Shown one piece after another: positions 84 to 63,015 of a stretch of DNA of 64,000 nt. Made by a program: the position numbers and the translations under genes. Position 1 is the first letter of the stretch. The number at the start of each line of letters is the position of its first letter. Source of the stretch: a virus (taxonomy: Duplodnaviria > Caudoviricetes); IMG/VR virus record IMGVR_UViG_3300037067_018091, positions 1 through 64,000 of that record; one strand, written 5' to 3'. The notes beneath the pieces were generated by a model. That model was not told the DNA's origin, ran no database searches, and was given only the letters and a program-made list of their open reading frames with translations.

Positions 84-434
84 TTAATTTCCAAAGATTT
101 TTTCTTCCAATTCAAGTATTTTATCATTCATTCTTTTGATATTTACAGGATCTATTAGATGGGAAGAGGGTCTTACCCATAAGGATTTTTGATATATCCG
201 TCCAACTAGTAAATAGTCTTTTAATTCTTGATATATTAAGGGATGATTTAAAAATGTATTAGTTATTTTATCATTGTTATTTCCATCACGATATGAATAC
301 GTTTTATGCACCCACCATTTAATTAATAATTTGAAAATTTCTAAATCTTTACAATCTTGAATAAATTGTAGTGTAAACTCTTTTTCTGGAAAAGATCCAA
401 GTGCAATTTGTATTTTTATTTCTTCGTCGGTCAT
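84..434 (-). CDS. hypothetical protein with N-terminal ExxxQxALG tag
   Basis: ORF 116 aa, begins MTDEEIKIQIALGS; overlaps 431..772 by 4 nt (coupled). Confidence 0.75.
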   Translation of the reverse strand: MTDEEIKIQIALGSFPEKEFTLQFIQDCKDLEIFKLLIKWWVHKTYSYRDGNNNDKITNTFLNHPLIYQELKDYLLVGRIYQKSLWVRPSSHLIDPVNIKRMNDKILELEEKIFGN

Positions 435-772
435 AGAATTTGATAAAGTTTTCTAATTTCATTTACTATTTTATTAATAAAAATTCGAGTAGTGTTGTTT
501 GTATTGGGATTATTTAAAAATTGTTCATGGACGAGATTGGCTTTTCTATAATATTGTATTTGTTGATCGGTATAATTTTTACGGGCGGCAGTAGTATATT
601 CATAAGCAATAGCATGTTCAATCATGTGGTATTCTAAATATCCACTATAAAAAATTTTGGCAAGATTTTCTAAAAGTTCAGGATCTTGAATTCCCCACAC
701 AAGAATGGGCTCGATGTGTTCAGGTTTTATTAAACCAAGGGCAATTTGAGCTTTTAATTCTGCATCTGTCAT
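431..772 (-). CDS. hypothetical protein with N-terminal ExxxQxALG tag
   Basis: ORF 113 aa, begins MTDAELKAQIALGL. Confidence 0.75.
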   Translation of the reverse strand: MTDAELKAQIALGLIKPEHIEPILVWGIQDPELLENLAKIFYSGYLEYHMIEHAIAYEYTTAARKNYTDQQIQYYRKANLVHEQFLNNPNTNNTTRIFINKIVNEIRKLYQIL

Positions 773-838
773 GTTGTATAATACATAAATAAAATGAAAT
801 AATTTCGTAATTTTAGTGTATAAAATAATGTAAATAAG

Positions 839-850
839 GAACTATAATAG
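839..850 (+). promoter_or_regulatory. candidate phage promoter motif GAACTATAATAG upstream of tRNA array
   Basis: Same motif recurs before several operon starts (6337, 13750, 18461, 20846). Confidence 0.5.
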
Positions 851-963
851 AATAAATCTTTTAAGCGAGTTGGAGAAATGCGACTTCAAAATCTACAAAG
901 TCAAATTTTACAAATTATCCGGCTTGCAATCTTTTCATTATCCCCAAGTTATATTAGATGGCA

Positions 964-1090
964 GCCGGCGACAGTTAATCATACCTATTCAGGAATGGTT
1001 GAACGCCGGCGAAATACGTCATCGTTGTTGGGCTAAGTTTAAACCCTACAACGCACGACGTAAGAAAGCCGGCAGGCAGTCTGTCGTGCG
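964..1090 (+). ncRNA. candidate structured RNA (three GC-rich hairpins)
   Basis: gccggcg/cgccggc (964-970/1004-1010), cgttgt-ggg/ccc-acaacg (1023-1053), cgcacgac/gtcgtgcg (1052-1090). Confidence 0.4.
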
Positions 1091-1106
1091 CTGTTGTAAA
1101 TATTTT

Positions 1107-1187
1107 AGCAGGCGAAGAGTGATGGTTAACTCACCGGTCTCATAAGCCGGTTAACAATTAGGGGTTCGATTCCCCCGCCTGCCTCCA
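1107..1187 (+). tRNA. tRNA with CAT anticodon (Met or Ile2)
   Basis: ccggt-CTCATAA-gccgg anticodon arm, TTCGATT T-loop, encoded CCA; 1:72 mismatch, 9-nt variable region. Confidence 0.8.
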
Positions 1188-1193
1188 AATTTT

Positions 1194-1876: not shown

Positions 1877-2104
1877 ATGAATGATAAAGAAAAAGAAGTG
1901 CAGATTGCATTAGGTACAGTTGAGAGGTGTACTGCGTGTGGTGAATTATATAGTACGAATCAACTTGAAGTGGTGCAATCAACTATTGACGAAAAGTTTT
2001 ATTTCATATGTATTAAATGTCTTAATAATGTTTCAACAATTGTGAATGTACGGCGCTGTGATGGAAATGGTATACATGTTCGCCTCAAGAGCGAGATTTT
2101 ATAG
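1877..2104 (+). CDS. small zinc-ribbon protein with ExxxQxALG tag
   Basis: MNDKEKEVQIALGT, CxxC...CxxC; 3' end overlaps tRNA-Leu(CAA). Confidence 0.7.
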   Translation: MNDKEKEVQIALGTVERCTACGELYSTNQLEVVQSTIDEKFYFICIKCLNNVSTIVNVRRCDGNGIHVRLKSEIL

Positions 2105-3606: not shown

Positions 3607-4170
3607 ATGCGTTCTTGTGATATGATGGTTGATTTAGAAACATTGGGCATGCCTCCTGATGGTATTATTGTTTCAATTGCGTGCGTTCCATTTGATCCGG
3701 AAGATGGAATTATTGATGAAGGTAAACGATGGAATATAACAATTGATTCTAATATTGCAGAAGGAAGAAAATTTACTCCTCAAACAGTTGAATGGTGGTT
3801 AAAGCAATCTAAAGAGGCACAAGAATCTCTTTTTGATATTGAACCACAACCTCTTGTAAATGTATTACAAGAATTTTGTGAATATGTACAAAAACATCTA
3901 GGAAAGAAAAGAAGTGTTTGGGTAAATGGTGCATCTTTTGATTTTATACTTTTAAAAGATGCTTTGATTAAAGCAAATATAAAAATTCCTTGGCATTTTA
4001 GACAAGAAAGTTGCATGAGGGCACTTTTACGTATTGGTAGATCTTTTGAGATAGAATACAAAAAGTATTCAGATGAAAATAAAGGAATCGCCCATAATGC
4101 ATTGGATGATTGTATAATACAGGCAAGATATATTATAGATTTTATAAAAATTATGAGGAAGGTTGACTGA
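3607..4170 (+). CDS. DEDDh 3'-5' exoribonuclease (Rv2179c/RNase AS-like)
   Basis: MVDLETLG, WW, WVNGASFD, HNALDD motifs. Confidence 0.88.
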   Translation: MRSCDMMVDLETLGMPPDGIIVSIACVPFDPEDGIIDEGKRWNITIDSNIAEGRKFTPQTVEWWLKQSKEAQESLFDIEPQPLVNVLQEFCEYVQKHLGKKRSVWVNGASFDFILLKDALIKANIKIPWHFRQESCMRALLRIGRSFEIEYKKYSDENKGIAHNALDDCIIQARYIIDFIKIMRKVD

Positions 4171-4243
4171 TCGGTAAAGTACCCGGTTGCTACCCGGAGG
4201 TCGGCCCGCAAGGGCTGAGAGGGTTCAATTCCTTCACCTTCCG
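4157..4243 (+). tRNA. tRNA-Ser(GCT)
   Basis: ggaaggt/accttcc, loop TTGCTAC, long variable arm, G73. Confidence 0.88.
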
Positions 4244-4252
4244 CTTAAAATT

Positions 4253-4426
4253 ATGACTAAAAAAGAATTTAACATTCAAAAATCTTTAGGATTAATTAAA
4301 TGTTGTATTTGTAAAACAAGTGAAATTGAATATAAGGAATTAGTAGTATTGGAAGCATTTGGTACGCCGCATACTGAGATAGTATGCGGGAAATGCCGTA
4401 ACGATATTTTATTAAAGGCAAAATAA
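4253..4426 (+). CDS. small zinc-ribbon protein with ExxxQxSLG tag
   Basis: MTKKEFNIQKSLGLIKCCICK...CGKC; ATG 4253 chosen because the longer track ORF starts inside tRNA-Ser. Confidence 0.7.
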   Translation: MTKKEFNIQKSLGLIKCCICKTSEIEYKELVVLEAFGTPHTEIVCGKCRNDILLKAK

Positions 4427-5115: not shown

Positions 5116-5415
5116 ATGACGAATAAAGAAAGACAAGTCCAGAAAGCGTTGGGCACCCTTTCAATTAAAGGGTGGTTACAAGAAAAAGGAATTGTTTTAC
5201 GTGAAAAATGGTGGTATTTCCCTTTAAAAAAATCTACACCGGCAGACAATAAAAATGTTGTAATCATAAATAATCAAAAGTATTATAAAGTTGCAGATGA
5301 ATACATTGATCAATTTGTTTTTCCTATTTCAAGTGTAAATGAAGTAATCGCAGAACAAGTAATTGAATCTGTATATTGGAGTATAAGTATTGAAAATGGT
5401 TCAAATATTTGTTAA
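5116..5415 (+). CDS. hypothetical protein with ExxxQxALG tag
   Basis: MTNKERQVQKALGT. Confidence 0.75.
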   Translation: MTNKERQVQKALGTLSIKGWLQEKGIVLREKWWYFPLKKSTPADNKNVVIINNQKYYKVADEYIDQFVFPISSVNEVIAEQVIESVYWSISIENGSNIC

Positions 5416-5917: not shown

Positions 5918-5991
5918 GCGGGAGCAGCTTGTTTGGATCGAGCAATCGCCCTACGCGCGAAAGGTAGTAGGTTCGACTCCTACCTCCCGCA
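5918..5991 (+). tRNA. tRNA-Val(TAC), C33 variant
   Basis: gcgggag/ctcccgc, tcgc-CCTACGC-gcga, gtagg-TTCGACT-cctac. Confidence 0.86.
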
Positions 5992-5997
5992 TTTTAT

Positions 5998-6348
5998 ATG
6001 ACTGAAGAAGAAGAAAAAATACAAGCGGCATTAGGTACTGTATTTACATGCTGCTTTTGTGAAAAAATTAAACCCACTTCTGAACAGTATCAATTTGATT
6101 ACGGTGATACTGCTGTGACGTGTTGTAAAGATTGTTTTACATCTACAGCGGAGGCATTATTTCCGGATAGTCGTTCTTTTAGTTATAGTACGAAAAAACT
6201 CCAAAATAATGGGGGTGTAGTTCAGTTGATATGGGGCGCGAACAAGGGTTCAGGACATCCTTGCACGGTGACCTCGCCGGGGGCGGTACCCGGGCGCTCC
6301 ACCAATTTTAGATTATGGAGGATTTGCAATTTATTTGAACTATATTAA
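5998..6348 (+). CDS. zinc-ribbon protein with ExxxQxALG tag, reading through tRNA-Ala
   Basis: MTEEEEKIQAALGT, CCFC...CCKDC; C-terminal part is encoded by tRNA sequence. Confidence 0.65.
   Translation: MTEEEEKIQAALGTVFTCCFCEKIKPTSEQYQFDYGDTAVTCCKDCFTSTAEALFPDSRSFSYSTKKLQNNGGVVQLIWGANKGSGHPCTVTSPGAVPGRSTNFRLWRICNLFELY
6233..6304 (+). tRNA. non-canonical tRNA-Ala(TGC)
   Basis: ggggcgc/gcgctcc with G3:U70, A73, CCA; catc-CTTGCAC-ggtg anticodon arm; T-loop GGCGGTA; reduced D arm. Confidence 0.7.
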
Positions 6349-7864: not shown

Positions 7865-8179
7865 ATGGTGCAGTTTCATTTAAATGATTGTCATGAACGT
7901 GTTTTATGGAAGTTGTTAACATTTGAAGGCAGTTTTCTTGTGTATTATCCTTCTGCAAAACGAGCCACCACGGTGGGTACTCATTGGTGTTTTGTTATGG
8001 AGAATAATTCAGAATTGGGTGAAATTATACAAGATAATGTTTGTGATGAATTAATAAAACATGGGTTTTTAGAAGCAGATTTGGATGAAAAAGAACATGA
8101 AGTGCAAACTGCATTAGGCACCCAAATAGGTCGAGTATTTAAATTATCTAATTCATTGAAAAATATTTTAAAAAGGTGA
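7865..8179 (+). CDS. hypothetical protein with internal ExxxQxALG tag
   Basis: DEKEHEVQTALGT near C-terminus. Confidence 0.75.
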   Translation: MVQFHLNDCHERVLWKLLTFEGSFLVYYPSAKRATTVGTHWCFVMENNSELGEIIQDNVCDELIKHGFLEADLDEKEHEVQTALGTQIGRVFKLSNSLKNILKR

Positions 8180-8192: not shown

Positions 8193-8486
8193 ATGGATGC
8201 AAAAGAAAGAAAAACGTTTATTGCGCGGTTGGAAGAATTTTGTAAACAAAAACAACTTGTAGAAATAATTACACCTAGTCGCGAAGCTACTGGATACATT
8301 ACTGAAGTCGGCGAAGATTTTCTGGGGGTTACTTTTTCAATCACTAAAGAAATTACAAAACAGGTTCCAAAAGAGGGGGGCGGAACAGATACTGAGAAAC
8401 ATATTATTGTAACGGAGCTTGAAGTTTTAATTAGATATAAAAATATTGATTCAGTTTCTCGAATTAAAAAGCAAGTTACTAAATAG
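8193..8486 (+). CDS. hypothetical protein, possible Sm-like fold
   Basis: VEIITPSREATGYITEVGEDFL and VLIRYKNIDSV resemble Sm1/Sm2. Confidence 0.55.
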   Translation: MDAKERKTFIARLEEFCKQKQLVEIITPSREATGYITEVGEDFLGVTFSITKEITKQVPKEGGGTDTEKHIIVTELEVLIRYKNIDSVSRIKKQVTK

Positions 8487-8496
8487 GAGTTTCATA

Positions 8497-9297
8497 ATGG
8501 CCAATTTGCTTAAAATCTCTGATACACATTTAAAACTTGCTAAATTTGCAAATGGTGAACCTGAAATTTTTGCAACTGTTCAGGGAGAAGGAATAAATAC
8601 AGGTATCCCAACAGTTTTTATCCGTTTATCTTTATGCAATTTAAGGTGTCGGTGGTGCGACACCAGTTATACATGGAATTGGGAAGGTACAACGTTTAAG
8701 CATAAAGATATGAAAACTGGGAAAAATGTTAAATATTGTCCAAAAAAAGAAATTATTGAATTAACCTCAATTGAAGTTATGGAATATATTTCTAAAGTAA
8801 GTGGCCCGAATATCCATCACGTGGTTATTACCGGCGGCGAACCTTTAATGCATCGTTCAAGTGAGGCATTTAAACATTTATTGATGTTACTTAAAAGTGC
8901 TGGGTATCATATAGAAATTGAAACAAACGGAACGTTAATTCCAGACGCATACGTCGCGTCTTTAATTGATCAATTTAATGTATCTCCCAAACTTGAAAAT
9001 TCCGGAAATTCTGTGCACGCGCGCCAAAAAGATAAAGTATACAAATTTTTTGCTCAATGCCCGAATACATATTTTAAATTTGTTGTTACGGGTAAAGCAG
9101 ATTTAGATGAAATTTTTAAGTTGCAAGCGTTGTATAATATTACAGCCGCAAAAATTTTACTTATGCCGGAAGGACGGACGGATAAAGAAACTCAGGCGAG
9201 AGCACAAGAAATTGTAGAGCTTTGTAAACAAAATGGCTATAGATTTTGTAATCGTTTACATGTGTGGATTTGGGATGGTGCACTTAGAGGAGTTTAA
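8497..9297 (+). CDS. queE: 7-carboxy-7-deazaguanine synthase (radical SAM)
   Basis: EIFATVQGEG, FIRLSLCNLRCRWCDT (CxxxCxxC), VITGGEP, IEIETNGT; AGGAG RBS before ATG 8497. Confidence 0.93.
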   Translation: MANLLKISDTHLKLAKFANGEPEIFATVQGEGINTGIPTVFIRLSLCNLRCRWCDTSYTWNWEGTTFKHKDMKTGKNVKYCPKKEIIELTSIEVMEYISKVSGPNIHHVVITGGEPLMHRSSEAFKHLLMLLKSAGYHIEIETNGTLIPDAYVASLIDQFNVSPKLENSGNSVHARQKDKVYKFFAQCPNTYFKFVVTGKADLDEIFKLQALYNITAAKILLMPEGRTDKETQARAQEIVELCKQNGYRFCNRLHVWIWDGALRGV

Positions 9298-10668
9298 ATG
9301 AGTAAAAATGATGTACCCTGGGATGGTTCTGTTCCAACATCATCGAGCAGTGATCCCAATGATGTTAAAAAAGGGATAGAATACAAAGATGTTGTACAAC
9401 ATCCGCGTGCAAAAGAAATTCGGGATAAATACGATACAAAACATATTTATAGTGAATTATCTGTTGAAGAGAAAATATTCTTTGATGGAAATTATGAAAA
9501 TCAGGCATTTGCGGCGTTTTTTGGGGACAATCCAGTTAAAAATTGTTGCTATTATAATTATTTGCAAAATAATATACATGCATACACAATTTATAATTTA
9601 ATGCAAAAAAGAGAAATTAAATTATTTAGTTTTGATTCTTCTGCTGCGTTATCCGCACTTAAAGTTTCTCCTAAAAATGAAGTATTTGTGCCTATGATGG
9701 GCGCATTTGTAATTGAATACAAAAATATTACATTGATATTAGAAATTGCTCATTTGTCGTATACGGTTGAATGGAATTGGTATGCAAAGTCGGCAAAAGA
9801 ATTTTCGGTTTTTGATAAATTTTTTACAAAGTCGGTGAAGAGATACAACCAGTATAAGGATCAAGTTTTTGATAATGATGGAAATTTTATATCACTTCCT
9901 AATGTTTCATTTAAAGATATTGTTCTTCCGGAGGGGATAAAAAAAGAAGTTAAACAAAATATTATTGATTATATTGATCCCGTGAAATTAGAAATTAAAC
10001 GGAAGAATGGTCTTCCTACAAAACGTGGTATTATTATGGTAGGAGAACCCGGAACGGGAAAGACATTTTTATCTCGTGTACTTGCAAAAACTCTTAAAAC
10101 TACTTTTATGGTGGTTACGATGGTACGGGGTGAAAATGATTTACAAGATATTTTTGAGTTCGCAGAACTTTTTGATAGAATAATTATACTATTTGAAGAT
10201 ATTGATATTTATAGTGGTGATAGACACCAAGGTGATATCGTTTCGTGTTTGTTGAATAAATTAGATGGTTTAGAAGTTAATAATCATTTAGTGGTGTTGT
10301 GTACTACAAATAATTTAGATGCGCTCGATGATGCGCTTAAAGATCGCCCGGGTCGCTTTGATCGTACTCTTCATTTCGATCCTCCGAATAAAGAGTTAAA
10401 AATCGAAATGCTTAAAGGATATTTGGTTGATAAAAATTTTGAGAATGTTGATTTTGAAAAAGTTGTAAAAGATATCCCCGCAGAATATACTGGGGCACAT
10501 TTAAAAGAATTATATATTACTGCTGCTACTGAAGCAATTGAAAGTGGTAGCGTTGATTCAAAGAAAATTGCAGTATTTACTACTGAAATTTTTCTGGATG
10601 CATTGAAAAAGTTACGTGGTTCACGAAAGGAAAAGACACGAATTGGATTCGATAAAGAAGATAGCTAA
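9298..10668 (+). CDS. AAA+ ATPase
   Basis: Walker A GEPGTGKT, Walker B ILFEDID, SRH TTN...RPGRFD. Confidence 0.92.
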   Translation: MSKNDVPWDGSVPTSSSSDPNDVKKGIEYKDVVQHPRAKEIRDKYDTKHIYSELSVEEKIFFDGNYENQAFAAFFGDNPVKNCCYYNYLQNNIHAYTIYNLMQKREIKLFSFDSSAALSALKVSPKNEVFVPMMGAFVIEYKNITLILEIAHLSYTVEWNWYAKSAKEFSVFDKFFTKSVKRYNQYKDQVFDNDGNFISLPNVSFKDIVLPEGIKKEVKQNIIDYIDPVKLEIKRKNGLPTKRGIIMVGEPGTGKTFLSRVLAKTLKTTFMVVTMVRGENDLQDIFEFAELFDRIIILFEDIDIYSGDRHQGDIVSCLLNKLDGLEVNNHLVVLCTTNNLDALDDALKDRPGRFDRTLHFDPPNKELKIEMLKGYLVDKNFENVDFEKVVKDIPAEYTGAHLKELYITAATEAIESGSVDSKKIAVFTTEIFLDALKKLRGSRKEKTRIGFDKEDS

Positions 10669-11008
10669 AAAAATTTCTCTTATTGAATTAAAAACTCAAT
10701 TGGGGTTAGGAACAATTGCAGATAATAAGTTAGCAACTGTTATTAAATATACACAAGATTCATTTATTTTGGAGTGGGCGGTAAAACATCGATCTGCTAA
10801 AATTCGTGCAGCTGCTACTGAAAATCTTTATTTACCTATCAATCTTTATGCGTTCAGGGGATTATTTTTAACTACTTCTACTGAACGTATTGCGTATGAA
10901 AAAGTTTTGCACGTACGACGCAAACAATTAGAACAATTATTCGCGACGGTAATTGCATCTTATCCACAATTAAATTTTATATTTTCAGAAAATGATATCA
11001 ATACCTAA
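10616..11008 (+). CDS. hypothetical protein with degenerate tag (ELKTQLGLGT)
   Basis: ORF in operon context; true start may be downstream. Confidence 0.65.
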   Translation: MVHERKRHELDSIKKIAKKISLIELKTQLGLGTIADNKLATVIKYTQDSFILEWAVKHRSAKIRAAATENLYLPINLYAFRGLFLTTSTERIAYEKVLHVRRKQLEQLFATVIASYPQLNFIFSENDINT

Positions 11009-11216
11009 TACAAATAAGATTCTCTCAGGCGTACATAAGTGTGATGTGTGCCAAGAAAAGGATGCCGAGTATTATAATTCTACTTGGTATATTCATATTT
11101 GTTCAAAAGAATGTTTTGATATTTTTATTGAAGAATATAATAAAGAAATAGATGATTTTACAATAATAAAATTAGATCCGGACCCAGATTCAAAGGATGA
11201 TTTAGATGTTGTGTAG
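10992..11216 (+). CDS. small zinc-binding protein
   Basis: CDVC...ICSKEC. Confidence 0.7.
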   Translation: MISIPNTNKILSGVHKCDVCQEKDAEYYNSTWYIHICSKECFDIFIEEYNKEIDDFTIIKLDPDPDSKDDLDVV

Positions 11217-11928
11217 CGTTGAACTTCCAATCAAATATTTAAATTATTTACAATATGTAGATTTTGATTATATTATTGCAAGTACGTGTTTTGAATATCC
11301 TAAATATTTAGAGTATTTTGTAAATAGAAAAATTCCCCGTTTTACAATTTTAGATAACGGGGCATTTGAAACGGGTGAAGCTGTACCGGATGTACAATAT
11401 CTTCAGCTTGCGCGTATAATTAAACCAAATGTTTTAGTTATCCCAGATGTTTTAAAAGATGCACAGGCAACTTTAGGGCGTTTTAATGAATTTATGCAAT
11501 TAAATCCACTTAAAGGATTATCGAGAACAAAACTTATGGGGGTTGTTCAGGCCGAAGGTAGTACTGTAAATGCTGAAATTTTAGGTAGTACTTATAGTTG
11601 TAAAGGTGTTCAATGGATTGGGATACCGTACGTGGCAGAATTGGATAGATATCGACTTATTAAAAAACATCCCGAGTGGAAAAATGTACATATTTTGGGT
11701 CTTCCGCATCTCGCAGAAATCCAGATATTGAAGGATTTACCAAATATTAAGTCTGTTGATTGTTCTTTACCAATTAATTTAAGTAAAGAAAAGAAACTTT
11801 TATATTTTGATGCGTGGACATCTACAGTGAGGGCTACTCCTAAAGAAAATAGATTGAATGGTGGTATATTAAAAATGAATTTAAATAATTTTTCAATGTT
11901 TTGTCATGGGGAACAGTTATGTCGATGA
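11206..11928 (+). CDS. TGT-like guanine transglycosylase (DpdA-like)
   Basis: ILDNGAFE, PDVLKD, GVVQ, VHILG, SVD motifs of the TGT fold; near queE. Confidence 0.7.
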   Translation: MLCSVELPIKYLNYLQYVDFDYIIASTCFEYPKYLEYFVNRKIPRFTILDNGAFETGEAVPDVQYLQLARIIKPNVLVIPDVLKDAQATLGRFNEFMQLNPLKGLSRTKLMGVVQAEGSTVNAEILGSTYSCKGVQWIGIPYVAELDRYRLIKKHPEWKNVHILGLPHLAEIQILKDLPNIKSVDCSLPINLSKEKKLLYFDAWTSTVRATPKENRLNGGILKMNLNNFSMFCHGEQLCR

Positions 11929-12506
11929 AACTCGTAGATTTAAAAATGTTAAATTATGATGGATCTCAATTACATCATGCATTTGCATATGAAAAAGTTA
12001 GAATATTAGGAGAAACTGTTTCTATTTTTCGGGGCCGGGCGCACGTAAAAAAGCATTTAGTTGATTTAGAAGATTCTTTGGCGGATGATTTGATATCTGC
12101 AAATGATATGTGGCATTTTATAATTGAGATTCCTGGCGCAACTATAATGGAATCTGTTGCAATTCAAAGACTTTTTATTTGTAAATGTATTGAGGTATTA
12201 CAAAATATTTTACCAGGAAAGTTATTTATACGAAGAGGTGATGACATCATAGTTAGGGGTAAAAAACTTTCTGTATCAATTGCAACCCTCTCTAGATTTG
12301 GTGGTCTTATTCATGTAGGAATTAATATTGATCCAGGTTCCGGATGTCCAGTTCCGGCAACTGGGTTAATTGAATTATTGTCGCGTAAAAAGAAAGTAGA
12401 TAGAGAATTTTGGATTAAAAATTTTGGTAGAAATGTTGCACATGTTTTTATTGAAGAGTATGAAGATATGAAAGAAGCTACATATAAAGTTAAGGAAGTA
12501 GAATAA
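11919..12506 (+). CDS. DUF366 family protein (lipoate/biotin-ligase-like fold)
   Basis: YDGSQL, DLED, MWHFIIE, QRL, RRGDDI..GKKLSVSIAT, IHVGIN. Confidence 0.82.
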   Translation: MSMKLVDLKMLNYDGSQLHHAFAYEKVRILGETVSIFRGRAHVKKHLVDLEDSLADDLISANDMWHFIIEIPGATIMESVAIQRLFICKCIEVLQNILPGKLFIRRGDDIIVRGKKLSVSIATLSRFGGLIHVGINIDPGSGCPVPATGLIELLSRKKKVDREFWIKNFGRNVAHVFIEEYEDMKEATYKVKEVE

Positions 12507-14005: not shown

Positions 14006-16126
14006 ATGGGATATCTTTTACCTGGTGGACGTTTTAAAAGGAATTATGGAGATTCATTGGTTTCTTCTGATTCACAACAGAATATCACTACAATTCCTTC
14101 TTTTAAACCAGTGACAGCGGGATCATTAACAAATACTCAGGGACGTATTGCGCGGGCAAGAAGTGTTACAGCTAATGCGGATATAAGTAGAACTGCTCCA
14201 ACATTTAATGATCCACGTTATACATTTACTACATTAAGTATTCCTACAGATTTACGTACATTAAATGGATTGTATCGATTTTTTGATGATACAGATCCTG
14301 TTGTAGGTAATGCTATTCGACTCCATACAGAATTTCCACTTTCTCGTATTTCTATGAAGGATGTTGGAGACCCCGTAATCCAACATCATTTTGAAGAAAT
14401 GTGGTCACGGATTAATATGGAACGCCTTTTATTTGATATTGCACTTGAATATTGGCGAATTGGTAATGTATTTCCATATGGTGCATGGAATACAGATGAT
14501 TTAATGTGGAATCAATTTGTAATTTTGAATCCAGATTACGTTACTGTAGAGGGTACGTTTTTAAATCAACGCCCATTAGTAAAACTACAACCTGATGAAC
14601 ATCTTAAAAAGATTATTTCTACGGGGCAGCCAAAAATGTTATATGATCAGTTGCCTACTGAAATTATTAAGTATGTTCGAATGGGCCAAGAAATTCCTCT
14701 TTCACCGAATAATGTATTTCATCTTGCACATAATAAAGCTCCGTATGAAACTTTGGGGCGTTCAATTATAAAACGAGTTTTGAAAAGTCTTATTTATGAA
14801 GATCGTATGTCGATGGCAAATTTTGCTATTGCTACCCGCCAAACAATTCCTATTACTGTGGTTAAACTTGGTGATGCTAATTCAGGCTGGGTACCCAACG
14901 ATGATGAATTTGAACAATTTCGTGAATTGTTGTCTGCACGTGAAGTTGATCCTAATTTTACAATTGTATATCACTGGGGCGTTGATATACAATTTTATGG
15001 TGCCTCTGGGAAGATTTGGAATCTTACAAATGAATTTAATCGAATTATGAAATGGAAGCTTATTGGGTTAGGAATTTCAGAAGCGATTCTTACTGGCGGG
15101 AGTTCTTATGCGACTGCGTACGCGCAATTAGAAGTATTACGACAGAGATATTTACATTTTCAAAATATATTAACCAATTTTGTATATCAAGGAATTTTTG
15201 AACCCGTTGCAAAAATTTGTGGCTTTTATCAAAGTTCCACAGTTGTTTCAGGTAAATATTATCAAGGGAAAAAATTTGGTAATTCTGAATTGATGAAAAT
15301 AGAAGAAGAAATTCAAAAACATGCTGCGAATTATGGTAATGAAGAAAGTCGTCGATATGTAGAACAGTTAAGGAAACGCGCTGCAAATTTAGATCCTAAT
15401 CCAAATCTTGTATTTCCAAATTTAGATTGGGATTTATTATCTTTATCTAATGATGTACAATATAGAAATTTTTTGATGAATTTTGATAGATTATTTCCGG
15501 GTTCACGTAAAATTTCTGATGCCACATTTTATATGGCAGCAAAGCTTGATCAAAATGTCGAACGTGAAAAGATATTAAGAGAGCATGAACAGAATTTAGA
15601 AGATCAATTAGAAAAAGCTAAAATTACTGAAAAGTATAAAAAGAAATTTGAAAAAGAGGGTGTACCTTTTCCAATGACTCCACAACCAGGTGGTGGAGCA
15701 GGTGGAGCAGGTGGAGCAGGTGCTCCCGGGGGATCGCCGGGCCCAGGAGGAATGAATATCCCAGCAGGCGGGGCACCGCCCGTTGGAGGAACTGGTGGTG
15801 GTAATTTAATGGGCGCACCTGCAATGACTCCAAATGCACCTGTGGGACTTAATAATTTTATGGGAAATCCTCCTTCACGTGGCGGTGTGGCTCAAGGACC
15901 TGAAGCATCTCGAATGAAATCTATGCAAATTCAACGGCAAATTGCACGATCAGGTGCAGAGGTTGAAGAAGGTCTTGCAGCGGAAGTAAAAAAACTTCGT
16001 GCATTAAATAAAGATGCAGGAATTGATATTGATGCAATTGATACGGAGGCAGCAGTTAATGCTGAACTTGAAAAACAAGCTACAACAGATCAAAATGATT
16101 CTTCAAAATCGACTGAGTCTGAATAA
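14006..16126 (+). CDS. portal protein
   Basis: 706 aa upstream of head genes; D-P-VVGNAI, VFHLAHN..YETLGRSII, coiled and Gly/Pro-rich C-terminus typical of large-phage portals. Confidence 0.8.
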   Translation: MGYLLPGGRFKRNYGDSLVSSDSQQNITTIPSFKPVTAGSLTNTQGRIARARSVTANADISRTAPTFNDPRYTFTTLSIPTDLRTLNGLYRFFDDTDPVVGNAIRLHTEFPLSRISMKDVGDPVIQHHFEEMWSRINMERLLFDIALEYWRIGNVFPYGAWNTDDLMWNQFVILNPDYVTVEGTFLNQRPLVKLQPDEHLKKIISTGQPKMLYDQLPTEIIKYVRMGQEIPLSPNNVFHLAHNKAPYETLGRSIIKRVLKSLIYEDRMSMANFAIATRQTIPITVVKLGDANSGWVPNDDEFEQFRELLSAREVDPNFTIVYHWGVDIQFYGASGKIWNLTNEFNRIMKWKLIGLGISEAILTGGSSYATAYAQLEVLRQRYLHFQNILTNFVYQGIFEPVAKICGFYQSSTVVSGKYYQGKKFGNSELMKIEEEIQKHAANYGNEESRRYVEQLRKRAANLDPNPNLVFPNLDWDLLSLSNDVQYRNFLMNFDRLFPGSRKISDATFYMAAKLDQNVEREKILREHEQNLEDQLEKAKITEKYKKKFEKEGVPFPMTPQPGGGAGGAGGAGAPGGSPGPGGMNIPAGGAPPVGGTGGGNLMGAPAMTPNAPVGLNNFMGNPPSRGGVAQGPEASRMKSMQIQRQIARSGAEVEEGLAAEVKKLRALNKDAGIDIDAIDTEAAVNAELEKQATTDQNDSSKSTESE
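15692..15718 (+). repeat. 3 x 9-bp coding repeat (GGA)
   Basis: ggtggagca x3 in portal C-terminus. Confidence 0.85.
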
Positions 16127-17099: not shown

Positions 17100-17886
17100 T
17101 ATTTTAAAAGTTGCGTGTTCGGGAAAAGTGGGCGATCCTAAAACACTGTCTCAACAAGAAGAGATGCGCCTAGGTGCGATTATTCAATCTGAAGGTTCTA
17201 CTGAAGTTGAAAAACGTACGGCGGTAGAACGCCTCGTAATGAAAAATATTTATTTAGTATTAAAAATTACTCATAAATATAAACGAAAAGAATTTGAGTT
17301 TGAAGATCTAGTTAGTTATGGGATTCTTGGATTATTTAAAGCGGCAACGAAATATGATCCAACGCGACAAAATAGATTTGCGTCTTATGCACGGCATTGG
17401 ATTAAAGAATCTATTATGAAAGCAATTAATGAATATAGTGGGCGCCCTAAAATTCCTGTTTATTTAGTAAAAGATCTTTGGTGCGTTTCTCGAATACTTT
17501 CACAAAATGATAATTTAGATGATATTACACTTGCAGAACGCGCAAACATTTCAATTGAATCCGCCGCGCATTTGAGGTCTTTATTATTTAAATTTGTTCC
17601 ATTTGATAGTACATATTCAGAGGTAGTATTTACAACTCCTGAAGATGAATTAATTCGCCGTGAACGAGATGCGGCAATAATTGAACAACTTAAAAAGTGT
17701 TTAACTCCCGAACAATTCACAGTAATTATGTATTCATGTGGATTATGTGAATATCCTAAAATGAAATTTAAGCAAATTACAAAGATTTTCAAAATAGAAA
17801 ATCCTAGACGCGTTAAGTTAGAAGCGATGCATATATTGAGTAAAAATGTAGTGTTGGAAGAGTTATATAAAGAAGGATTAGAGTAA
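17083..17886 (+). CDS. RNA polymerase sigma-70 family factor
   Basis: LVMKNIYLV, FEDLVSYGILGLFKAATKYDP..NRFASYARHWIKESI. Confidence 0.9.
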   Translation: MANLNNILKVACSGKVGDPKTLSQQEEMRLGAIIQSEGSTEVEKRTAVERLVMKNIYLVLKITHKYKRKEFEFEDLVSYGILGLFKAATKYDPTRQNRFASYARHWIKESIMKAINEYSGRPKIPVYLVKDLWCVSRILSQNDNLDDITLAERANISIESAAHLRSLLFKFVPFDSTYSEVVFTTPEDELIRRERDAAIIEQLKKCLTPEQFTVIMYSCGLCEYPKMKFKQITKIFKIENPRRVKLEAMHILSKNVVLEELYKEGLE

Positions 17887-21326: not shown

Positions 21327-25100
<3,774 letters not shown>

Positions 25101-58689: not shown

Positions 58690-59958
58690 TTGGAGAAGCT
58701 TGTGAAGATATTATGGATTTCTGATAATCCGTCTAGTAACAGCGGTTACGGTAAAATCACTGCACAAACAGTTCGGCATTTAAAATCTCAAGGACATGAA
58801 ATACTATTAATGGCGGGCGGCGCTCCGTTTTATAACATACCTTTTCAAGAACAGGCTTGGGAAGGTTGCCGTCTATGGTTGGTTGCAGATTATGGTAATG
58901 CTGAACAAATAAGATATTTTTTGAATGTTGAAAAACCAGATGTCGTAGTTGCAAATGCTGATCCGCGATTTTTTGATTATCTTTTCAAATTAGATAATGA
59001 AATCCGCCGCGTTTGTCCCCTTGTTTTCTATCATCTCTGGGATGATGGACCTTTCCCAAAATTTAATGTTCCTTACTATAATAGTTGCGATCATATTATA
59101 GCGGGATCAAAATTTACATACGAATTACTTCGTGCGAACAGTACTCCCGATACCATGCTTTCCTATGCCCCGATTGGATTTGATTCAAGTACATATCATC
59201 CAATTTCAAAAGATGAAGTTATTGAATTTAGACAACAATTTAATCAACTTACAAATTTTGAACATGTCGATGCAAAATTTATCGCCGGTGTCGTTGCCCG
59301 CCACTCAGAGCGGAAAAATTTGTTAAGTATTATGGAGTCTTTTACAAAGTGGGCCGAAGGAAAGAAGGATGTCTTGCTTTTTGTTCATTCGCCTGGACAA
59401 GATGCGGGTCGTAGTCTTGAATACGCGATGAATAATATGTTCGCGGATAAAAAGATTATTTTAAGTAATGCTGCCCCACAGATGCAAAAGGACGATTTAG
59501 TTAATCGATTTTATAATTTTTTTGATGTAATTTTAAATCGTTCTACTGCAGAAGGTTTTGGAATGCCTATCGCAGAAGCGATGCTGGCGGGAACCCCAGC
59601 AATTACAATAGATTGTCCGGGACCTGCAGGATTGGTGGACGATTCTAATGGTTGGTTGCTTAAAACAGATGTAAAACCTTTGTTAAGTAATCAAGTTGTG
59701 CCGTTCATTTATAGTAGATATATAACGGACGAGAAATTTATTGCGGCATTAGATGAAGCATATAATAATCCAGTACTCCGTGAACAAAAGGCTGCAAAAT
59801 GTCGTCAGTTTATCATGGATAATTATTCTCTTAATGGGATGGTTAAGGGGATTGAAACGGCTTTACAAAAAGCAATTGCGAATTGGCGTAGATATCCTGA
59901 ATTTACCGTTCATTCATTTCCTGCAGTTGAATTGAAGAAAGCAGAAACAACTGAATAA
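58690..59958 (+). CDS. GT-B (GT4-like) glycosyltransferase
   Basis: SGYGK N-terminal motif, RKNL, EGFGMPIAEAMLAGTP. Confidence 0.9.
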   Translation: MEKLVKILWISDNPSSNSGYGKITAQTVRHLKSQGHEILLMAGGAPFYNIPFQEQAWEGCRLWLVADYGNAEQIRYFLNVEKPDVVVANADPRFFDYLFKLDNEIRRVCPLVFYHLWDDGPFPKFNVPYYNSCDHIIAGSKFTYELLRANSTPDTMLSYAPIGFDSSTYHPISKDEVIEFRQQFNQLTNFEHVDAKFIAGVVARHSERKNLLSIMESFTKWAEGKKDVLLFVHSPGQDAGRSLEYAMNNMFADKKIILSNAAPQMQKDDLVNRFYNFFDVILNRSTAEGFGMPIAEAMLAGTPAITIDCPGPAGLVDDSNGWLLKTDVKPLLSNQVVPFIYSRYITDEKFIAALDEAYNNPVLREQKAAKCRQFIMDNYSLNGMVKGIETALQKAIANWRRYPEFTVHSFPAVELKKAETTE

Positions 59959-60416
59959 TGGGTGCTTGGGGAACACGGTCATCCGAAAACGACGCTGTAC
60001 ATGATCTGTTAAGCATGGCCGGCCGTAAGAATGCTCACTATGGGTTTGAGGATCCTGGAGAACTTACAAATGAACAGCTTGAGCAGTTTATTATGAATAG
60101 ATTTGTAGTACCTTTACAACTTTCTAATGATGAAAAACATGTTCAAGCTGCGTTAGGCACTTTACGGAAACTTAATGAATTAATACATCCTATGCATTTT
60201 CTTGGATTAATAATTTGGGGATTTGATCGTGGCTGGACATTTAATAGAGATATTTTAACTATTGCAGATGAATCAAGTATGAAATTGATTTACGATCAAA
60301 ATGAATGGTTTAGATATATTCATATGTGGGCGCATCCAAAAATTCGTCATTATCGACTTTTAAAAGAAATGTGCAAAATTAAACAAGCAATAAAGGAAAA
60401 GAATGATGGCAGATAA
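59958..60416 (+). CDS. hypothetical protein, DUF4259-like N-terminus, internal ExxxQxALG tag
   Basis: MGAWGTRSSENDAVHD; SNDEKHVQAALGT. Confidence 0.65.
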   Translation: MGAWGTRSSENDAVHDLLSMAGRKNAHYGFEDPGELTNEQLEQFIMNRFVVPLQLSNDEKHVQAALGTLRKLNELIHPMHFLGLIIWGFDRGWTFNRDILTIADESSMKLIYDQNEWFRYIHMWAHPKIRHYRLLKEMCKIKQAIKEKNDGR

Positions 60417-61572
60417 AATTAAGGTTTTGTTCAAAGCCCCTTTTGCAGATTACAGCGGATATGCCACAATTGCTCGTAATTTGTTGATTCAACTCTATAA
60501 ATTAGATAAATTTGATCTTTATCTTGAGCCAATTGTATGGATCAATTCTGGGAATCTTGAACTTCCCGAAGAAGAGAAGAAAATTATCGATGAACTTCTT
60601 GCAAAGTCTGTTCAAATTGATCCAACAGATAAAACTCTTATTCATTTTTCAATTGCAACTGAATTTTTTGGTGAAAAAAGTCCTTTTCGCAAAACAATTG
60701 GATTTACAATGATTGAGACTGATAAAACTGCGAACGGATGGGCGTGGAAATGTAATCAAATGGACGCAGTTTTTGTTCCATCCACGTTTTGCCTTGGCTC
60801 TTTTATGCAATCTAATGTCTCAGTGCCGATAAGAGTTGTACCGTTTGGGATTGATTTTGAAAAATATACGCCTGAGGGCGAAAAACTTCTTGATCTTCCT
60901 ACAAAATTTAACTTTCTTACGGTTGGCCAATGGCTTCCACAAGGAGATCGTAAAAATATTATAGGCGTATTGCAAACTTTCTTGCATAATTTTAGAAATA
61001 ATCCAGATGTGGGATTAATTTTAAAGACTTATCACGTCGGCGCAGGAACTGTCGATAAATTGCAAATTGAAAATTCTATTCAACAAATTAGACAGCAAGT
61101 AGGTATTAAAAATAATGAAGGGCCCCAGATTTATTTAGTGCATGGTGCAATGAGTGAAGAAAATATGATCAAATTGTATCGTAATGCAGATGTATTTTTA
61201 CTCCCGACATGCGGTGAAGCTTGGGGAATGCCGTTAATGGAAGCTGCTGCGATGGGTCTCCCAATTATTACAACTCGAGGTACCGGTGCTGAAGCGTTTT
61301 TGAATGAAGAGCATGTGGTAATGGTTGATGCAGAATGGAAACCTATTGGAAATAGAATTTATTGGCCTCATGTTTATGAACATTATCAGCAATTGTTGAT
61401 TCCAAATATGGAAGAATTTGCCAGAATGGTTCATAGAGTTTATAAATATCCTGAAATGTCTAGAGAACAAGCAAAAAAGCAGCGGCTTGAAATGATTGAA
61501 CGTGGTTTTACTTGGAAGGCAGCCGCGGAACAACTTGCTGAGGCAATTGAGGATCTTAATGATGCGGAATAA
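60403..61572 (+). CDS. GT-B (GT4-like) glycosyltransferase
   Basis: SGYATIAR, RKNI, GEAWGMPLMEAAAMGLP. Confidence 0.9.
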   Translation: MMADKIKVLFKAPFADYSGYATIARNLLIQLYKLDKFDLYLEPIVWINSGNLELPEEEKKIIDELLAKSVQIDPTDKTLIHFSIATEFFGEKSPFRKTIGFTMIETDKTANGWAWKCNQMDAVFVPSTFCLGSFMQSNVSVPIRVVPFGIDFEKYTPEGEKLLDLPTKFNFLTVGQWLPQGDRKNIIGVLQTFLHNFRNNPDVGLILKTYHVGAGTVDKLQIENSIQQIRQQVGIKNNEGPQIYLVHGAMSEENMIKLYRNADVFLLPTCGEAWGMPLMEAAAMGLPIITTRGTGAEAFLNEEHVVMVDAEWKPIGNRIYWPHVYEHYQQLLIPNMEEFARMVHRVYKYPEMSREQAKKQRLEMIERGFTWKAAAEQLAEAIEDLNDAE

Positions 61573-61849
61573 AATTAAGGATACTCCTAATTTTTATAAA
61601 GATATAGAATTCGGTATTAGAGATGTTGTCAAATTACTTCGAGACAACGGTATTAATACTACATGTTCTTGCGGCCATGAAATGTATGTCGAATTTGAAT
61701 GTTGTTCTTCGACTATGGTAGAGAATATTTATAATGTTTTATTTAACGCAGGATATCGTGGTTTTAGAATTAATTATGCTCTACAATGTCCTCCTGATGG
61801 GTTTGTTATACGGCGAGGAACAATTCTATTAAATAAATGGATGGAGTAA
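61559..61849 (+). CDS. hypothetical protein
   Basis: IEFGIRDVVKLL..GINTTCSCGH motif. Confidence 0.7.
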   Translation: MMRNKIKDTPNFYKDIEFGIRDVVKLLRDNGINTTCSCGHEMYVEFECCSSTMVENIYNVLFNAGYRGFRINYALQCPPDGFVIRRGTILLNKWME

Positions 61850-61850
61850 A

Positions 61851-62360
61851 TTGCAGAATAAAACTGTTTATTTAATGGTTGGGAATATCGGTACTGGAAA
61901 ATCGACAACTGTTGCAAAATTAACTAAAGGAAATTTAGATAAAATTGCGGTTCTTGATACAGATGGACTTGCAATGATGTATTCTGCAAATGATTATGGA
62001 CCGCATATTTGGACTGCCGAACGTAGAAATTTATATCGTACTTCTTTGTTAAAACTTGAAGATTTAGCATTACAAAAAGGGTTTGATGTTATCGTAGATA
62101 GTACCGCAATGTCTCGAGAATGTCGAAAATCTTTTATAGATATTGCAAAAAATAACGGTGCGCGGATAGTAGTATATCTTCATCGTACTCCAGGAGGATT
62201 AGAGAGACGGTGTCAGGAACCACGCGGCCAAACACGTGAACTTTGGACAATAGTATATGAAGGATTTGAAAATGAGTTTGAAGAACCTTCATTAGATGAA
62301 GGAATTGATGAAATAATTAATTGTACGCGGGTGTATCATAATCATGGGATTAAATCTTAA
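61851..62360 (+). CDS. P-loop kinase (AAA_33, polynucleotide-kinase-like)
   Basis: GNIGTGKST, VIVDST, R motif. Confidence 0.82.
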   Translation: MQNKTVYLMVGNIGTGKSTTVAKLTKGNLDKIAVLDTDGLAMMYSANDYGPHIWTAERRNLYRTSLLKLEDLALQKGFDVIVDSTAMSRECRKSFIDIAKNNGARIVVYLHRTPGGLERRCQEPRGQTRELWTIVYEGFENEFEEPSLDEGIDEIINCTRVYHNHGIKS

Positions 62361-62703
62361 AAAGAACTCCAAAAAAGATGGCGAATGGTACGGTTGCGAC
62401 CTCGATGGAACTTTGGCATACCACGATAAGTGGGGCGGAATTGAACATATTGGTAAGCCGATTCCTAAAATGCTTGAAAGAGTTAAAAAATGGATTTCTG
62501 AGGGAAAGACTGTAAAAATATTTACGGCTCGCGCTGCAGAAGGTCCTGAAGCAATCAAATATGTCGAAGATTGGCTTGAAGAAAATGGTATTGGTGGCCT
62601 TGAAGTTACGAATAAAAAAGATTTTAAACTTGTTGAACTTTGGGATGATCGAGTAGTTCAAGTTAAGAAAAATACTGGCGAACGAGTTGATGGAAAAGAG
62701 TAA
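62344..62703 (+). CDS. HAD-family phosphatase (PNK phosphatase-like)
   Basis: CDLDGTL, FTAR, WDDR. Confidence 0.8.
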   Translation: MGLNLKKNSKKDGEWYGCDLDGTLAYHDKWGGIEHIGKPIPKMLERVKKWISEGKTVKIFTARAAEGPEAIKYVEDWLEENGIGGLEVTNKKDFKLVELWDDRVVQVKKNTGERVDGKE

Positions 62704-62705
62704 AT

Positions 62706-62876
62706 ATGGGTTTGATTTTACCTCCAGAAGCAAGTATATATTTTCATAAAATGACTGCAAAAGAGTTGGGTATTTCAGAAGATGAATATAAAATTCAAGA
62801 TGCATTAGGATTAATTTCTTCGGTTATAGGGGTTGATTGGGGTATAAGTGACAATGGGCATGATTTTACCACCTAA
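62706..62876 (+). CDS. small protein with ExxxQxALG tag
   Basis: hand-translated 56 aa: ILPP...MTAKELGISEDEYKIQDALGL. Confidence 0.65.
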   Translation: MGLILPPEASIYFHKMTAKELGISEDEYKIQDALGLISSVIGVDWGISDNGHDFTT

Positions 62877-63015
62877 GATTTATAAACGGCCGATGACTGC
62901 AGACGAAATGGGCATTTCGGAAGATGAATATAAAATTCAAGAAGCATTGGGAATAATTCCTAAAATTGAAATGGTTAAATATCTTGGTAAAAGTCGAAAG
63001 TTGGTTCGAAAATGA
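62860..63015 (+). CDS. small protein, tandem paralog with ExxxQxALG tag
   Basis: hand-translated 51 aa: ILPP...MTADEMGISEDEYKIQEALGI. Confidence 0.65.
   Translation: MILPPKIYKRPMTADEMGISEDEYKIQEALGIIPKIEMVKYLGKSRKLVRK

Follow-up and report, generated by a model that had tools for sequence, protein, structure and literature searches.

Tag carriers in the window

The window, that is, the whole 64,000-nucleotide stretch of DNA analysed, covers positions 1-64000 of an 87,699 bp (87.7 kb) contig from an uncultured large sediment phage, in which a 15-residue helix tag, M-T-x-K-E-x-x-I/V-Q-x-A-L-G-T-L, is found on at least 19 small accessory proteins. Every one of the 11 peptides listed in the preliminary description of this DNA was recovered in an open frame at its ORF, and a 12th copy (ISDEELQYQIALGT), which had been missed, was recognised in a truncated ORF at the very edge of the contig. 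The carriers in the window and one neighbouring gene are as follows (tag scores in bits):

2..127, minus strand: carrier ORF left incomplete by the end of the contig; tag ISDEELQYQIALGTLD at nt 29-76 (23.5 bits)
84..434, minus strand: carrier of 116 aa with a helical downstream part; tag MTDEEIKIQIALGSFP at nt 387-434, residues 1-16 (27.2 bits)
431..772, minus strand: all-helical carrier of 113 aa containing an LRV-like stretch ('NPNT'); tag MTDAELKAQIALGLIK at nt 725-772 (21.8 bits)
1877..2104, plus strand: carrier of 75 aa with a CxxC zinc-ribbon knuckle 5 residues past the tag; tag at nt 1877-1924 (27.5 bits)
4253..4426, plus strand: carrier of 57 aa, tag followed by a zinc ribbon; tag at nt 4253-4300 (23.3 bits)
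5116..5415, plus strand: carrier of 99 aa, alpha/beta 'WWYFP' family with four metagenome homologues; tag at nt 5116-5163
5998..6348, plus strand: carrier ORF, tag followed by a Cys-rich zinc ribbon; tag at nt 5998-6045 (23.0 bits)
7865..8179, plus strand: carrier with a C-terminal tag and 19 residues past the Gly; tag LDEKEHEVQTALGTQI at nt 8081-8128 (20.4 bits)
9298..10668, plus strand: Cdc48/VAT/PAN-like single-ring AAA+ ATPase with a unique N-domain of ~200 aa; not a carrier, candidate partner
10616..11008, plus strand: syntenic conserved carrier 3' of the AAA+ gene with a HEAT/LRV-like helical body; tag ISLIELKTQLGLGTIA at nt 10673-10720 (14.0 bits)
59958..60416, plus strand: 152-aa carrier whose tag is internal; tag LSNDEKHVQAALGTLR at nt 60120-60167 (18.0 bits)
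62706..62876, plus strand: small carrier, first of two tandem genes; tag ISEDEYKIQDALGLIS at nt 62772-62819 (22.3 bits)
62848..63015, plus strand: small carrier, second member of the pair; tag ISEDEYKIQEALGIIP at nt 62914-62961 (24.0 bits)

Genes next to carriers include those for a ligase, RNase H, glycosyltransferases and tRNAs; the carrier at 59958..60416 sits between two GT4 glycosyltransferase genes, and the ATGs of 4253..4426 and 5998..6348 lie 9 nt downstream of tRNA-Ser (4157-4244) and 7 nt downstream of tRNA-Val (5918-5991), respectively. Metagenome homologues of 84..434 are 73-80% identical to it, and 7865..8179 is homologous to a G002 family in which C-terminal tags likewise occur. 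The most degenerate tag is ISLIELKTQLGLGTIA of 10616..11008, and the tags of the tandem pair (62706/62860) would be nearly N-terminal if the in-frame ATGs at 62751 and 62893 are the starts.

The motif is not a product of chance

The preliminary description had called for a profile scan of the genome and of related phages and for a comparison with shuffled sequence. On the whole contig, the pattern Q.[AGS]LG[TLSIV] gave 17 matches, against 0.9 (maximum 3) across 200 shuffles, and a 16-position HMM gave 19 matches at 14-27.5 bits, with the next best at 5.7 bits and a peak of 8.8 bits in 20 shuffled genomes. The reversed pattern had 0 matches, versus 1-16 per contig with the true one, and together with the shuffles this control excludes chance or low complexity. 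An ATG lies exactly 8 codons upstream of the Gln in 9-10 of the first 17 copies. Three contig copies are on the minus strand, so the tag does occur on both strands, as had been claimed, and the HMM found 0 copies in the structural module (11-60 kb of the contig). The N-arm of the major capsid protein (MCP), 'SEAGRQALGAQ', was rejected as a copy, because its register is off by one residue and its HMM score is noise.

Spread and modularity of the carriers

Five related IMG/VR contigs hold 1-19 tag copies each, and the tag is present on more than 119 sediment metagenome contigs, often in tandem arrays of small genes. Among 298 carriers (median length 91 aa), the tag is N-terminal in 241 (81%), C-terminal in 27 (9%) and internal in 30 (10%), which extends the earlier observation of N-terminal and internal positions; some C-terminal tags end only 2-3 residues before the stop. 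With the tag masked, the 298 carriers fall into 131 clusters, 93 of them singletons. LRV/HEAT-like solenoids make up 27% (79/298), and the other classes include zinc ribbons, a DnaG-like core and a two-TM protein. Domains of independent origin bear the tag, namely LRV (PF01816), a DnaG_N+Toprim core and RNase H+LRV, and a NADAR-like domain was recognised by eye on one tagged carrier. The claim that the sequence after the tag differs holds for more than 130 families, zinc ribbons included, but its 'DUF4259-like' assignment is not supported (no such Pfam match at E<=1). Tandem duplication is common, and syntenic slots of related genomes hold different carriers while core genes are 45-88% identical. 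The carrier with two predicted TM segments has its tag at the C-terminus, which points to the cytoplasm as the place of tag action.

Helix architecture and conservation

The tag forms an alpha-helix in its own right, some 10 residues long and capped at both ends. The layout comprises a hydrophobic N' residue (the initiator Met in N-terminal tags, I/L/V in internal ones), an S/T N-cap, Glu at N3, I/V-Q-x-A-L and a Gly C-cap, followed by T/S and L/I, and in the logo this fits a capping box, a hydrophobic staple and a Gly C-cap. Whatever fold comes after, E5 and Q9 are each conserved in 297/298 carriers, and G13 is present in 99% of copies, figures that are inflated because the 230 metagenome copies were found by a pattern fixing K4, E5, [IV]8, Q9, A11, L12 and G13; the 68 HMM-found copies on six phage contigs show the same invariant residues. 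Position 14 is T/S in 72% of copies, and directly after the Gln 19% of copies have L and 16% have I. Beyond position 16, a sharp boundary, information content is no higher than background. A hydrophobic residue is present at positions 3/6/10 in 76/96/89% of the LRV class versus 20/69/45% of other carriers. AlphaFold models of two different families place the tag in a helix at residues 3-12 and 3-11, in both cases followed by a second helix (helix 3-12, break 13-16 and helix 17-23 in the 5116..5415 family, whose model gave 0 matches at E<=0.001 in a fold search), and zinc knuckles begin 4-7 residues past the tag Gly. Helix capping, together with packing on the next helix, can account for all of the T2/E5/G13 residues and the I8/A11/L12 stripe. 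A classical helix-turn-helix was rejected: with G13 set at position 9, position 5 would be the invariant Gln rather than a small residue, no recognition helix is conserved after position 16, and some tags end 2-3 residues past the Gly.

In the AlphaFold model of the LRV class, the tag forms the first helix of an LRV/HEAT-like solenoid with pLDDT 96; over residues 1-162 this model aligns with alphaRep (Z 15.4) and 1LRV (Z 11.1), and the tag occupies the first-helix slot. An LRV profile search found the tag on 82 of 118 matches, all 82 being short metagenomic proteins; among the matches listed, 0 of 36 long LRV proteins (four of them named from bacterial MAGs) bear it, and they have other N-termini. 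These proteins, and the 73% of carriers that are not LRV, rule out the tag as a general LRV solenoid cap. Compared with known LRV/HEAT-like repeat proteins (PF01816, PDB 1LRV, alphaRep designs), the carriers are alike in that 27% are LRV solenoids and different in that the rest have other folds (zinc ribbons, alpha/beta, enzyme domains).

Searches of Pfam and PHROGs with ten carriers returned nothing over the tag region, NCBIfam, queried with carrier 10616-11008, gave no match, and a PDB sequence profile search with the tag gave one chance-level match (E=1.8). A search of the ESM Atlas returned generic helical or LRV neighbours only, and GenBank phages gave no DNA match and one LRV match, in a Moorella phage, that lacks the tag. 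Our literature search found no description of the motif.

Selection on the protein

Codons at the invariant positions of the contig copies vary (Ala GCT/GCA/GCC/GCG, Leu TTG/CTT/TTA/CTC, Gly GGT/GGA/GGC), and a pool of 296 copies uses the full codon sets of Ala (4), Leu (6) and Gly (4). Since every synonymous codon occurs at these positions, selection acts on the protein, as had been proposed from codon divergence in the first copies. A nucleotide-level element (promoter, recombination site or translation enhancer) was discarded, because codons are free at invariant residues and copies lie inside as well as at the ends of ORFs.

Discussion

A tag that is N-terminal, C-terminal or internal on more than 130 otherwise dissimilar families is the pattern expected of a common docking or sorting signal, and our tentative preference is for a modular helix that one putative common partner recognises in the cytoplasm, a reading that we place slightly short of an even chance. 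The preliminary description had suggested an amphipathic docking or sorting helix by analogy with T4 capsid targeting. The short helix, protein-level selection and modularity over more than 130 families without other detectable similarity speak for that proposal, but the tag does not hang on a linker as a free peptide, and the T4 analogy is weakened; in the LRV class, whose model makes the tag an integral helix of the solenoid, the tag would be part of the fold. Positions 3, 6 and 10 form a stripe of the helix that varies with the carrier's own domain, and the stripe E5, I/V8, Q9, A11 and L12, the same on all carriers, would be read by the common partner in the cytoplasm during infection. The data show the helix and its modularity, selection and spread. 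The exposure of the invariant face is inferred from a helical-wheel argument, and that there is a partner, and which one, is likewise an inference. Most carriers are small, fast-evolving modules of a binding type (LRV/HEAT-like solenoids, zinc ribbons) expanding in tandem arrays, and a single machine would use the members of the family as adaptors or receive them as clients.

The leading candidate for this partner, named with doubt and on present evidence unlikely, is the clade's conserved Cdc48/PAN-like AAA+ ATPase. It is 46-51% identical in three relatives, with a tag carrier directly downstream each time, but this link carries little weight because the synteny lies within a single clade of close relatives. 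The contigs with the tag are all closely related to one another, so the co-occurrence of tag and AAA+ gene is uninformative, and a search of IMG/VR found no wider relatives of the ATPase. A further step, quite unlikely in our estimate, would be a phage adaptor system in which dozens of fast-evolving binders per genome (LRV solenoids, zinc ribbons) each seize a different host or defence protein and pass it via the invariant helix to the phage's own AAA+ unfoldase. The F-box/PRANC adaptors (e.g., poxvirus ankyrin-repeat proteins) join variable ANK domains to a small constant helical docking element in a large, fast-evolving multigene family. The phage carriers resemble them in that variable LRV/HEAT-like solenoids are joined to one constant helix in a large, fast-evolving family, but there is no relation in sequence or fold, a single 10-residue helix stands in place of a three-helix box of ~40 residues, and the setting is bacterial. 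If true, the adaptor system would give bacterial viruses an equivalent of the targeted remodelling or degradation that F-box-type proteins bring about. Microcompartment and encapsulin cargo peptides are short amphipathic helices at the termini or between the domains of unrelated cargo, read by one shell protein. The phage tag is like them a short helix, at either terminus or internal, on unrelated proteins; however, cargo peptides sit on flexible linkers, whereas the tag abuts the next domain, and the only shell genes of the phage are those of the capsid.

The strongest alternative, which we consider unlikely, is a family signature without any partner: one ancestral small helical (LRV-like) protein would have kept its first helix as an unusually good N-terminal cap or folding nucleus while the rest diverged past recognition or was replaced. 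This would agree with LRV being the largest class (79/298), in which the tag is modelled with high confidence as the first solenoid helix, with a textbook capping or packing role for every conserved residue, with the second helix after the tag in both models, and with frequent tandem duplication (for example, seven paralogues in L154). Nevertheless, the polar residues E5 and Q9 are near-invariant over 131 clusters, well past the needs of helix stability; tags occur on domains of independent origin (DnaG core, NADAR-like, RNase H, zinc ribbons, TM protein), some with only 2-3 residues after them; and the 36 listed long LRV proteins do without.

Researchers have described in T-even phages a capsid targeting sequence (CTS), a short constant N-terminal peptide on otherwise hypervariable small accessory proteins (PMC3012670). 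The phage tag is similar as a constant short peptide on fast-evolving small proteins encoded in arrays, mostly at the N-terminus, and it could by analogy load small anti-host proteins into the prohead for ejection with the DNA, a possibility that we judge distinctly unlikely. The phage does belong to a large-capsid lineage (MCP 37.7% identical to that of Bacillus phage G) and encodes a 1257-aa protein with a prohead-protease domain. However, the CTS is strictly an N-terminal leader of ~10 residues, whereas 27/298 and 30/298 of the phage tags are C-terminal and internal (19% together), and the tag as a whole is on more than 130 families that include enzymes and a membrane protein with two predicted TM segments. 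The CTS also ends at a prohead-protease site and is removed; no recognisable protease-site consensus is evident at the phage tag, and the integral LRV helix in the model speaks against a cleaved leader. In addition, the structural module is free of copies, and more than 19 distinct cargo proteins per partial genome would be unusual.

Sliding-clamp motifs, such as QLxLxL (QLVLGL in Pol IV) and the PIP box QxxLxxFF, are found at N- or C-termini, and the Q-x-A-L-G-L/-F-F endings of some tags (e.g., QRALGLFF*), together with the DnaG-like carrier, would suit a clamp/PCNA-type motif that takes accessory proteins to the replisome. We regard this as very improbable, because position 2 after the Gln is L/I in only about one copy in three, most copies have G or T where the motifs have their key last hydrophobic residue, and the tag is helical with a conserved upstream E and S/T that clamp motifs lack. 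The logo, Q-x-A-L-G-[TS]-[LI], does not match the beta-clamp/PIP consensus (QL[SD]LF, QLxLxL, QxxLxxFF), and the replication genes of the clade comprise a family A polymerase, DnaB, a DnaC-like protein and a primase, with no clamp gene among the part of the proteins scanned. Hardly credible is a RiPP leader with variable cores: tandem arrays of very small genes, a constant N-terminus ending in Gly and a variable, sometimes Cys-rich remainder recall precursor genes, but carriers have folded domains and a median length of 91 aa, 19% of tags lie elsewhere than at the N-terminus, genes for a modifying enzyme, peptidase or exporter are absent beside the arrays, and the sole radical SAM gene (8446-9297) is read as QueE-type from its CxxxCxxC and its position in a deazaguanine cluster. 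A double-glycine leader was likewise rejected on comparison with the tag logo.

Short constant tags on variable proteins (capsid targeting, encapsulation peptides, F-boxes, clamp motifs) route many clients to one machine, and here one helix marks a large share of the clade's accessory genes, being present on 19 or more genes within 88 kb and, overall, on over 130 sequence families. If the tag is a fold signature only, it would still be a useful case of a single helix kept while all downstream was replaced. If instead the recognition-helix reading is right and the tag is a docking handle, its partner would give a common context to hundreds of proteins of unknown function, the tag would make the accessory genes of these phages, which are probably host-directed, easy to recognise by sequence, and it could also serve as a compact, portable helix tag in targeting experiments.

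Copies of the tag on the contig

All 11 peptides quoted in the preliminary description were recovered in the window by six-frame translation, which also yielded a 12th copy, ISDEELQYQIALGT, in a partial ORF at the contig edge (2..127, minus strand). They share a 15-residue motif of the type M-T-x-K-E-x-x-I/V-Q-x-A-L-G-T-L, here called the tag, and proteins that have it are called carriers. The window is the first 64 kb of a single virus contig of 87,699 bp. A strict regular expression matched 17 times on the whole contig vs 0.9 (maximum 3) in 200 shuffles, so that the shuffle test of motif frequency that had been proposed came out in favour of the motif, and a looser expression added 2 further copies (contig positions 67177 and 67523). 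The proposed HMM scan of the whole contig gave an equally clear answer. With a 16-position HMM built from 54 copies, 19 matches scored 14.0-27.5 bits, while the runner-up reached 5.7 bits and the top score on 20 shuffled genomes was 8.8 bits; this clean gap means that the contig holds exactly 19 copies, without a degenerate tail. Of the first 17 copies, 9-10 have an ATG exactly eight codons upstream of the tag Gln. The carriers are grouped among tRNA genes (1-11 kb) and in a glycosyltransferase island (60-80 kb), whereas the tag HMM scan found 0 carriers in the head-tail module. Two carriers start directly after tRNA genes, and neither has a Shine-Dalgarno-like sequence:

Window 4157-4300: carrier start 9 nt past the 3' end of tRNA-Ser
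Window 5918-6045: carrier start 7 nt past the 3' end of tRNA-Val

This spacing suggests co-transcription with the tRNA array, which would leave very short leaders after tRNA processing.

Other genes on the contig are as follows (window coordinates unless locus L002, on the same contig, is named).

8446-12506 and L002 1405-1941: 7-deazaguanine cluster (QueE-like radical SAM, DUF366, QueD-like), surrounding an AAA+ ATPase gene and suggestive of DNA or tRNA base modification
11206-11928: DpdA-like candidate ORF of this cluster, with no Pfam match
16014-17099, 17083-17886 and L002 759-1427: three sigma-factor-like genes on one phage contig, assigned by a Sigma70_r2 Pfam match and PHROG sigma factor matches
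17887-18462: peptide deformylase with a fused C-terminal SEC-C zinc motif, 57-58% identity in four relatives
21327-25100: 1257-aa protein whose residues ~135-215 match head maturation protease and whose remainder has no known-family match; gene closely followed by one for a 165-aa protein and by the MCP gene

Distribution in relatives and metagenomes

A degenerate DNA pattern used to search IMG/VR contigs matched 16, 11, 1, 1 and 15 times in five of them (whole records), where the reversed-pattern control gave 0 matches and the tag HMM counted 19, 12, 1, 1 and 16 copies. Their MCP identity to the window contig is 82-88%, with extensive synteny, and these contigs form one clade with the window contig. 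Among cultured phages, Bacillus phage G has the closest MCP (37.7% identity). The 87.7-kb window contig probably represents a fragment. A relative of 130 kb, syntenic with it (comparison with the related contig G005 and loci L108-L114) has 60 kb extra, including these genes:

Fusion of a family A polymerase with a UDG domain (UDG-exo-PolA)
GroEL and class II-like RNR (ribonucleotide reductase)
SbcCD-like genes, DNA ligase and RNase H
Intein-containing 1009-aa protein

A stricter 39-bit DNA pattern matched more than 119 metagenome contigs, a lower bound, and to judge by the record-name prefixes (LAZR01, SDBU/SDBT/SDBV, Ga01149xx) most of them probably come from sediment samples. Among the matches listed, 81 metagenome loci (247 kb) hold 230 tag copies, 173 of them with an ATG at tag position 1, and their carrier genes (median 91 aa) often form translationally abutting tandem arrays. 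The sole match among 185,579 species genomes was a contig of 2,985 bp from the bin of a Zixibacteria MAG (JAYEHE010000227.1), on which a tag+LRV gene adjoins two glycosyltransferase-like genes resembling those of the phage island. This contig is probably a binned phage fragment, and offers a weak hint that Zixibacteria may be the phage host. When 1.84 billion proteins were searched with a tag profile, ten matched at E<=0.001, most with the tag at residue 1 or with two tags per protein.

Diversity of the carriers

After masking of the tag, 298 carriers fell into 131 BLAST clusters, including 93 singletons; the tag was N-terminal in 241, C-terminal in 27 and internal in 30.

Carrier classes
LRV/HEAT-like repeats (Pfam PF01816): 79 members, the largest class
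Zinc ribbons: first CxxC 4-7 residues past the tag Gly
K-G repeat family: includes contig position 79866 (L001 15866-16177)
Alpha/beta 'WWYFP' family: includes window 5116-5415
Families whose tag sits at the very C-terminus: e.g. ...KIQRALGLL*
DnaG_N+Toprim core (Pfam) with N-terminal tag: locus L103 831-1550, minus strand, equal to G005 46084-46800
NADAR-like domain (by eye from the sequence), then tag and helical domain
RNase H+LRV protein with tag
Protein predicted to have two membrane segments, with C-terminal tag

At one metagenome locus (Ga0172362_10061826), seven tandem paralogues of the K-G repeat family, tag plus (K-G-x-K-L-Y)n, lie within 2.9 kb. In the tagged DnaG-like core Pfam detected neither a zinc-binding nor a helicase-binding domain. 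Its gene is flanked by an SbcD-like and an SbcC-like gene; the clade also has a separate, ordinary primase gene. Upstream of the tag in the tandem pair at window 62751-62819 and 62893-62961 stands MTAKELG or MTADEMG, which looks like the first half of the tag and would fit a duplication of its N-terminal half. Syntenic genomes keep their core genes while the carriers in the intervening slots differ, which argues that carriers are quickly gained, lost and replaced.

Selection and helix anatomy

The codons of the invariant residues vary freely within the contig, and across 296 copies all 4/4 Ala, 6/6 Leu and 4/4 Gly codons are used; thus, as the preliminary description had suggested, the target of selection is the peptide, not the DNA. 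The logo of 298 copies is M/L/I/V - T/S - x - K - E - (F/I/L) - (K/E) - I/V - Q - x - A - L - G - T/S/L - L/I - (S/P/D), with information content at background level upstream of position 1 and downstream of position 16. Because the metagenome copies were found with a pattern fixing seven tag positions, the conservation figures of that set are inflated; the same invariants are seen in the 68 copies that the HMM found on six phage contigs. By what is known of helix capping, the logo describes a helix capped at both ends: a hydrophobic staple links positions 1 and 6, positions 2 and 5 form an S/T-x-x-E capping box, and the Gly at 13 is a C-cap, with a hydrophobic residue after it. The staple residue at position 1 is the initiator Met in N-terminal tags and I, L or V in internal ones. 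In AlphaFold models the helix spans residues 3-12 for the family to which the window 5116-5415 protein belongs (pLDDT 74.8) and residues 3-11 for a protein of the tag+LRV type (pLDDT 97.4).

Alternative explanations

The possibility that the tag is simply part of one shared folded domain, named in the preliminary description as a refutation, holds in part for the LRV class, in which it is modelled as a solenoid helix; 73% of carriers are non-LRV. In the tag+LRV AlphaFold model the tag (pLDDT 96) fills the first outer solenoid helix slot, and the whole model (residues 1-162) aligned with alphaRep HEAT-like designs (Z 15.4) and 1LRV (Z 11.1). In an LRV profile search of 5.8 billion proteins, the tag occurred in 82 of the 118 matches listed, all 82 short metagenomic proteins, and in none of the 36 long LRV proteins among them, four of which are named from bacterial MAGs. 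Hydrophobic residues occupy positions 3, 6 and 10 in 76/96/89% of LRV-class tags as against 20/69/45% of non-LRV tags, while E5, I/V8, Q9, A11, L12 and G13 are alike in both. The non-LRV majority, the tagless long LRV proteins and the class-specific positions all speak against a tag that serves just as an LRV cap. On a helical wheel, positions 3/6/10 lie roughly opposite the shared invariant set, from which we infer that a class-specific stripe would pack on the carrier's own domain and that a universal stripe, with the near-invariant polar residues E5 and Q9 at its rim, would be available to something common.

The analogy with the T4 capsid targeting sequence (CTS) drawn in the preliminary description has good precedent, as T-even internal proteins are highly diverse and have the conserved CTS alone in common (PMC3012670). 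However, the phage carriers described here also bear the tag C-terminally or internally, and these placements, the membrane carrier and the predicted integral LRV helix all fit a capsid-targeting signal poorly, which makes it unlikely. QRALGLFF* and QxALGL resemble a clamp/PIP motif, but the logo and the helical character of the tag make this reading highly improbable, and the clade polymerase is of family A. A RiPP leader, least probable of these, conflicts with carrier size and neighbouring genes, and an HTH with the absence of a conserved second helix.

A possible shared partner

No family covering the tag was found in Pfam and PHROGs scans of ten carriers or in NCBIfam for one carrier; the tag was not found in PDB sequences or GenBank phages, and the literature searched held no account of it. 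Variable proteins that share one short constant tag are known in kind; no description seems to exist of this tag, of its scale or of its phage clade. The best-supported reading, which we hold tentatively, is that the tag would be a modular recognition helix read by one shared cytoplasmic partner. In 4/4 contigs holding the gene of the clade's Cdc48/VAT/PAN-like AAA+ ATPase (9298-10668), a conserved carrier lies directly downstream of it, which is weak evidence for partnership because close relatives share synteny. This ATPase, with its unique ~200-residue N-domain, is the leading candidate, albeit a speculative one. The shared partner would act in the cytoplasm, as indicated both by the carrier that is a membrane protein and by those that are enzymes.
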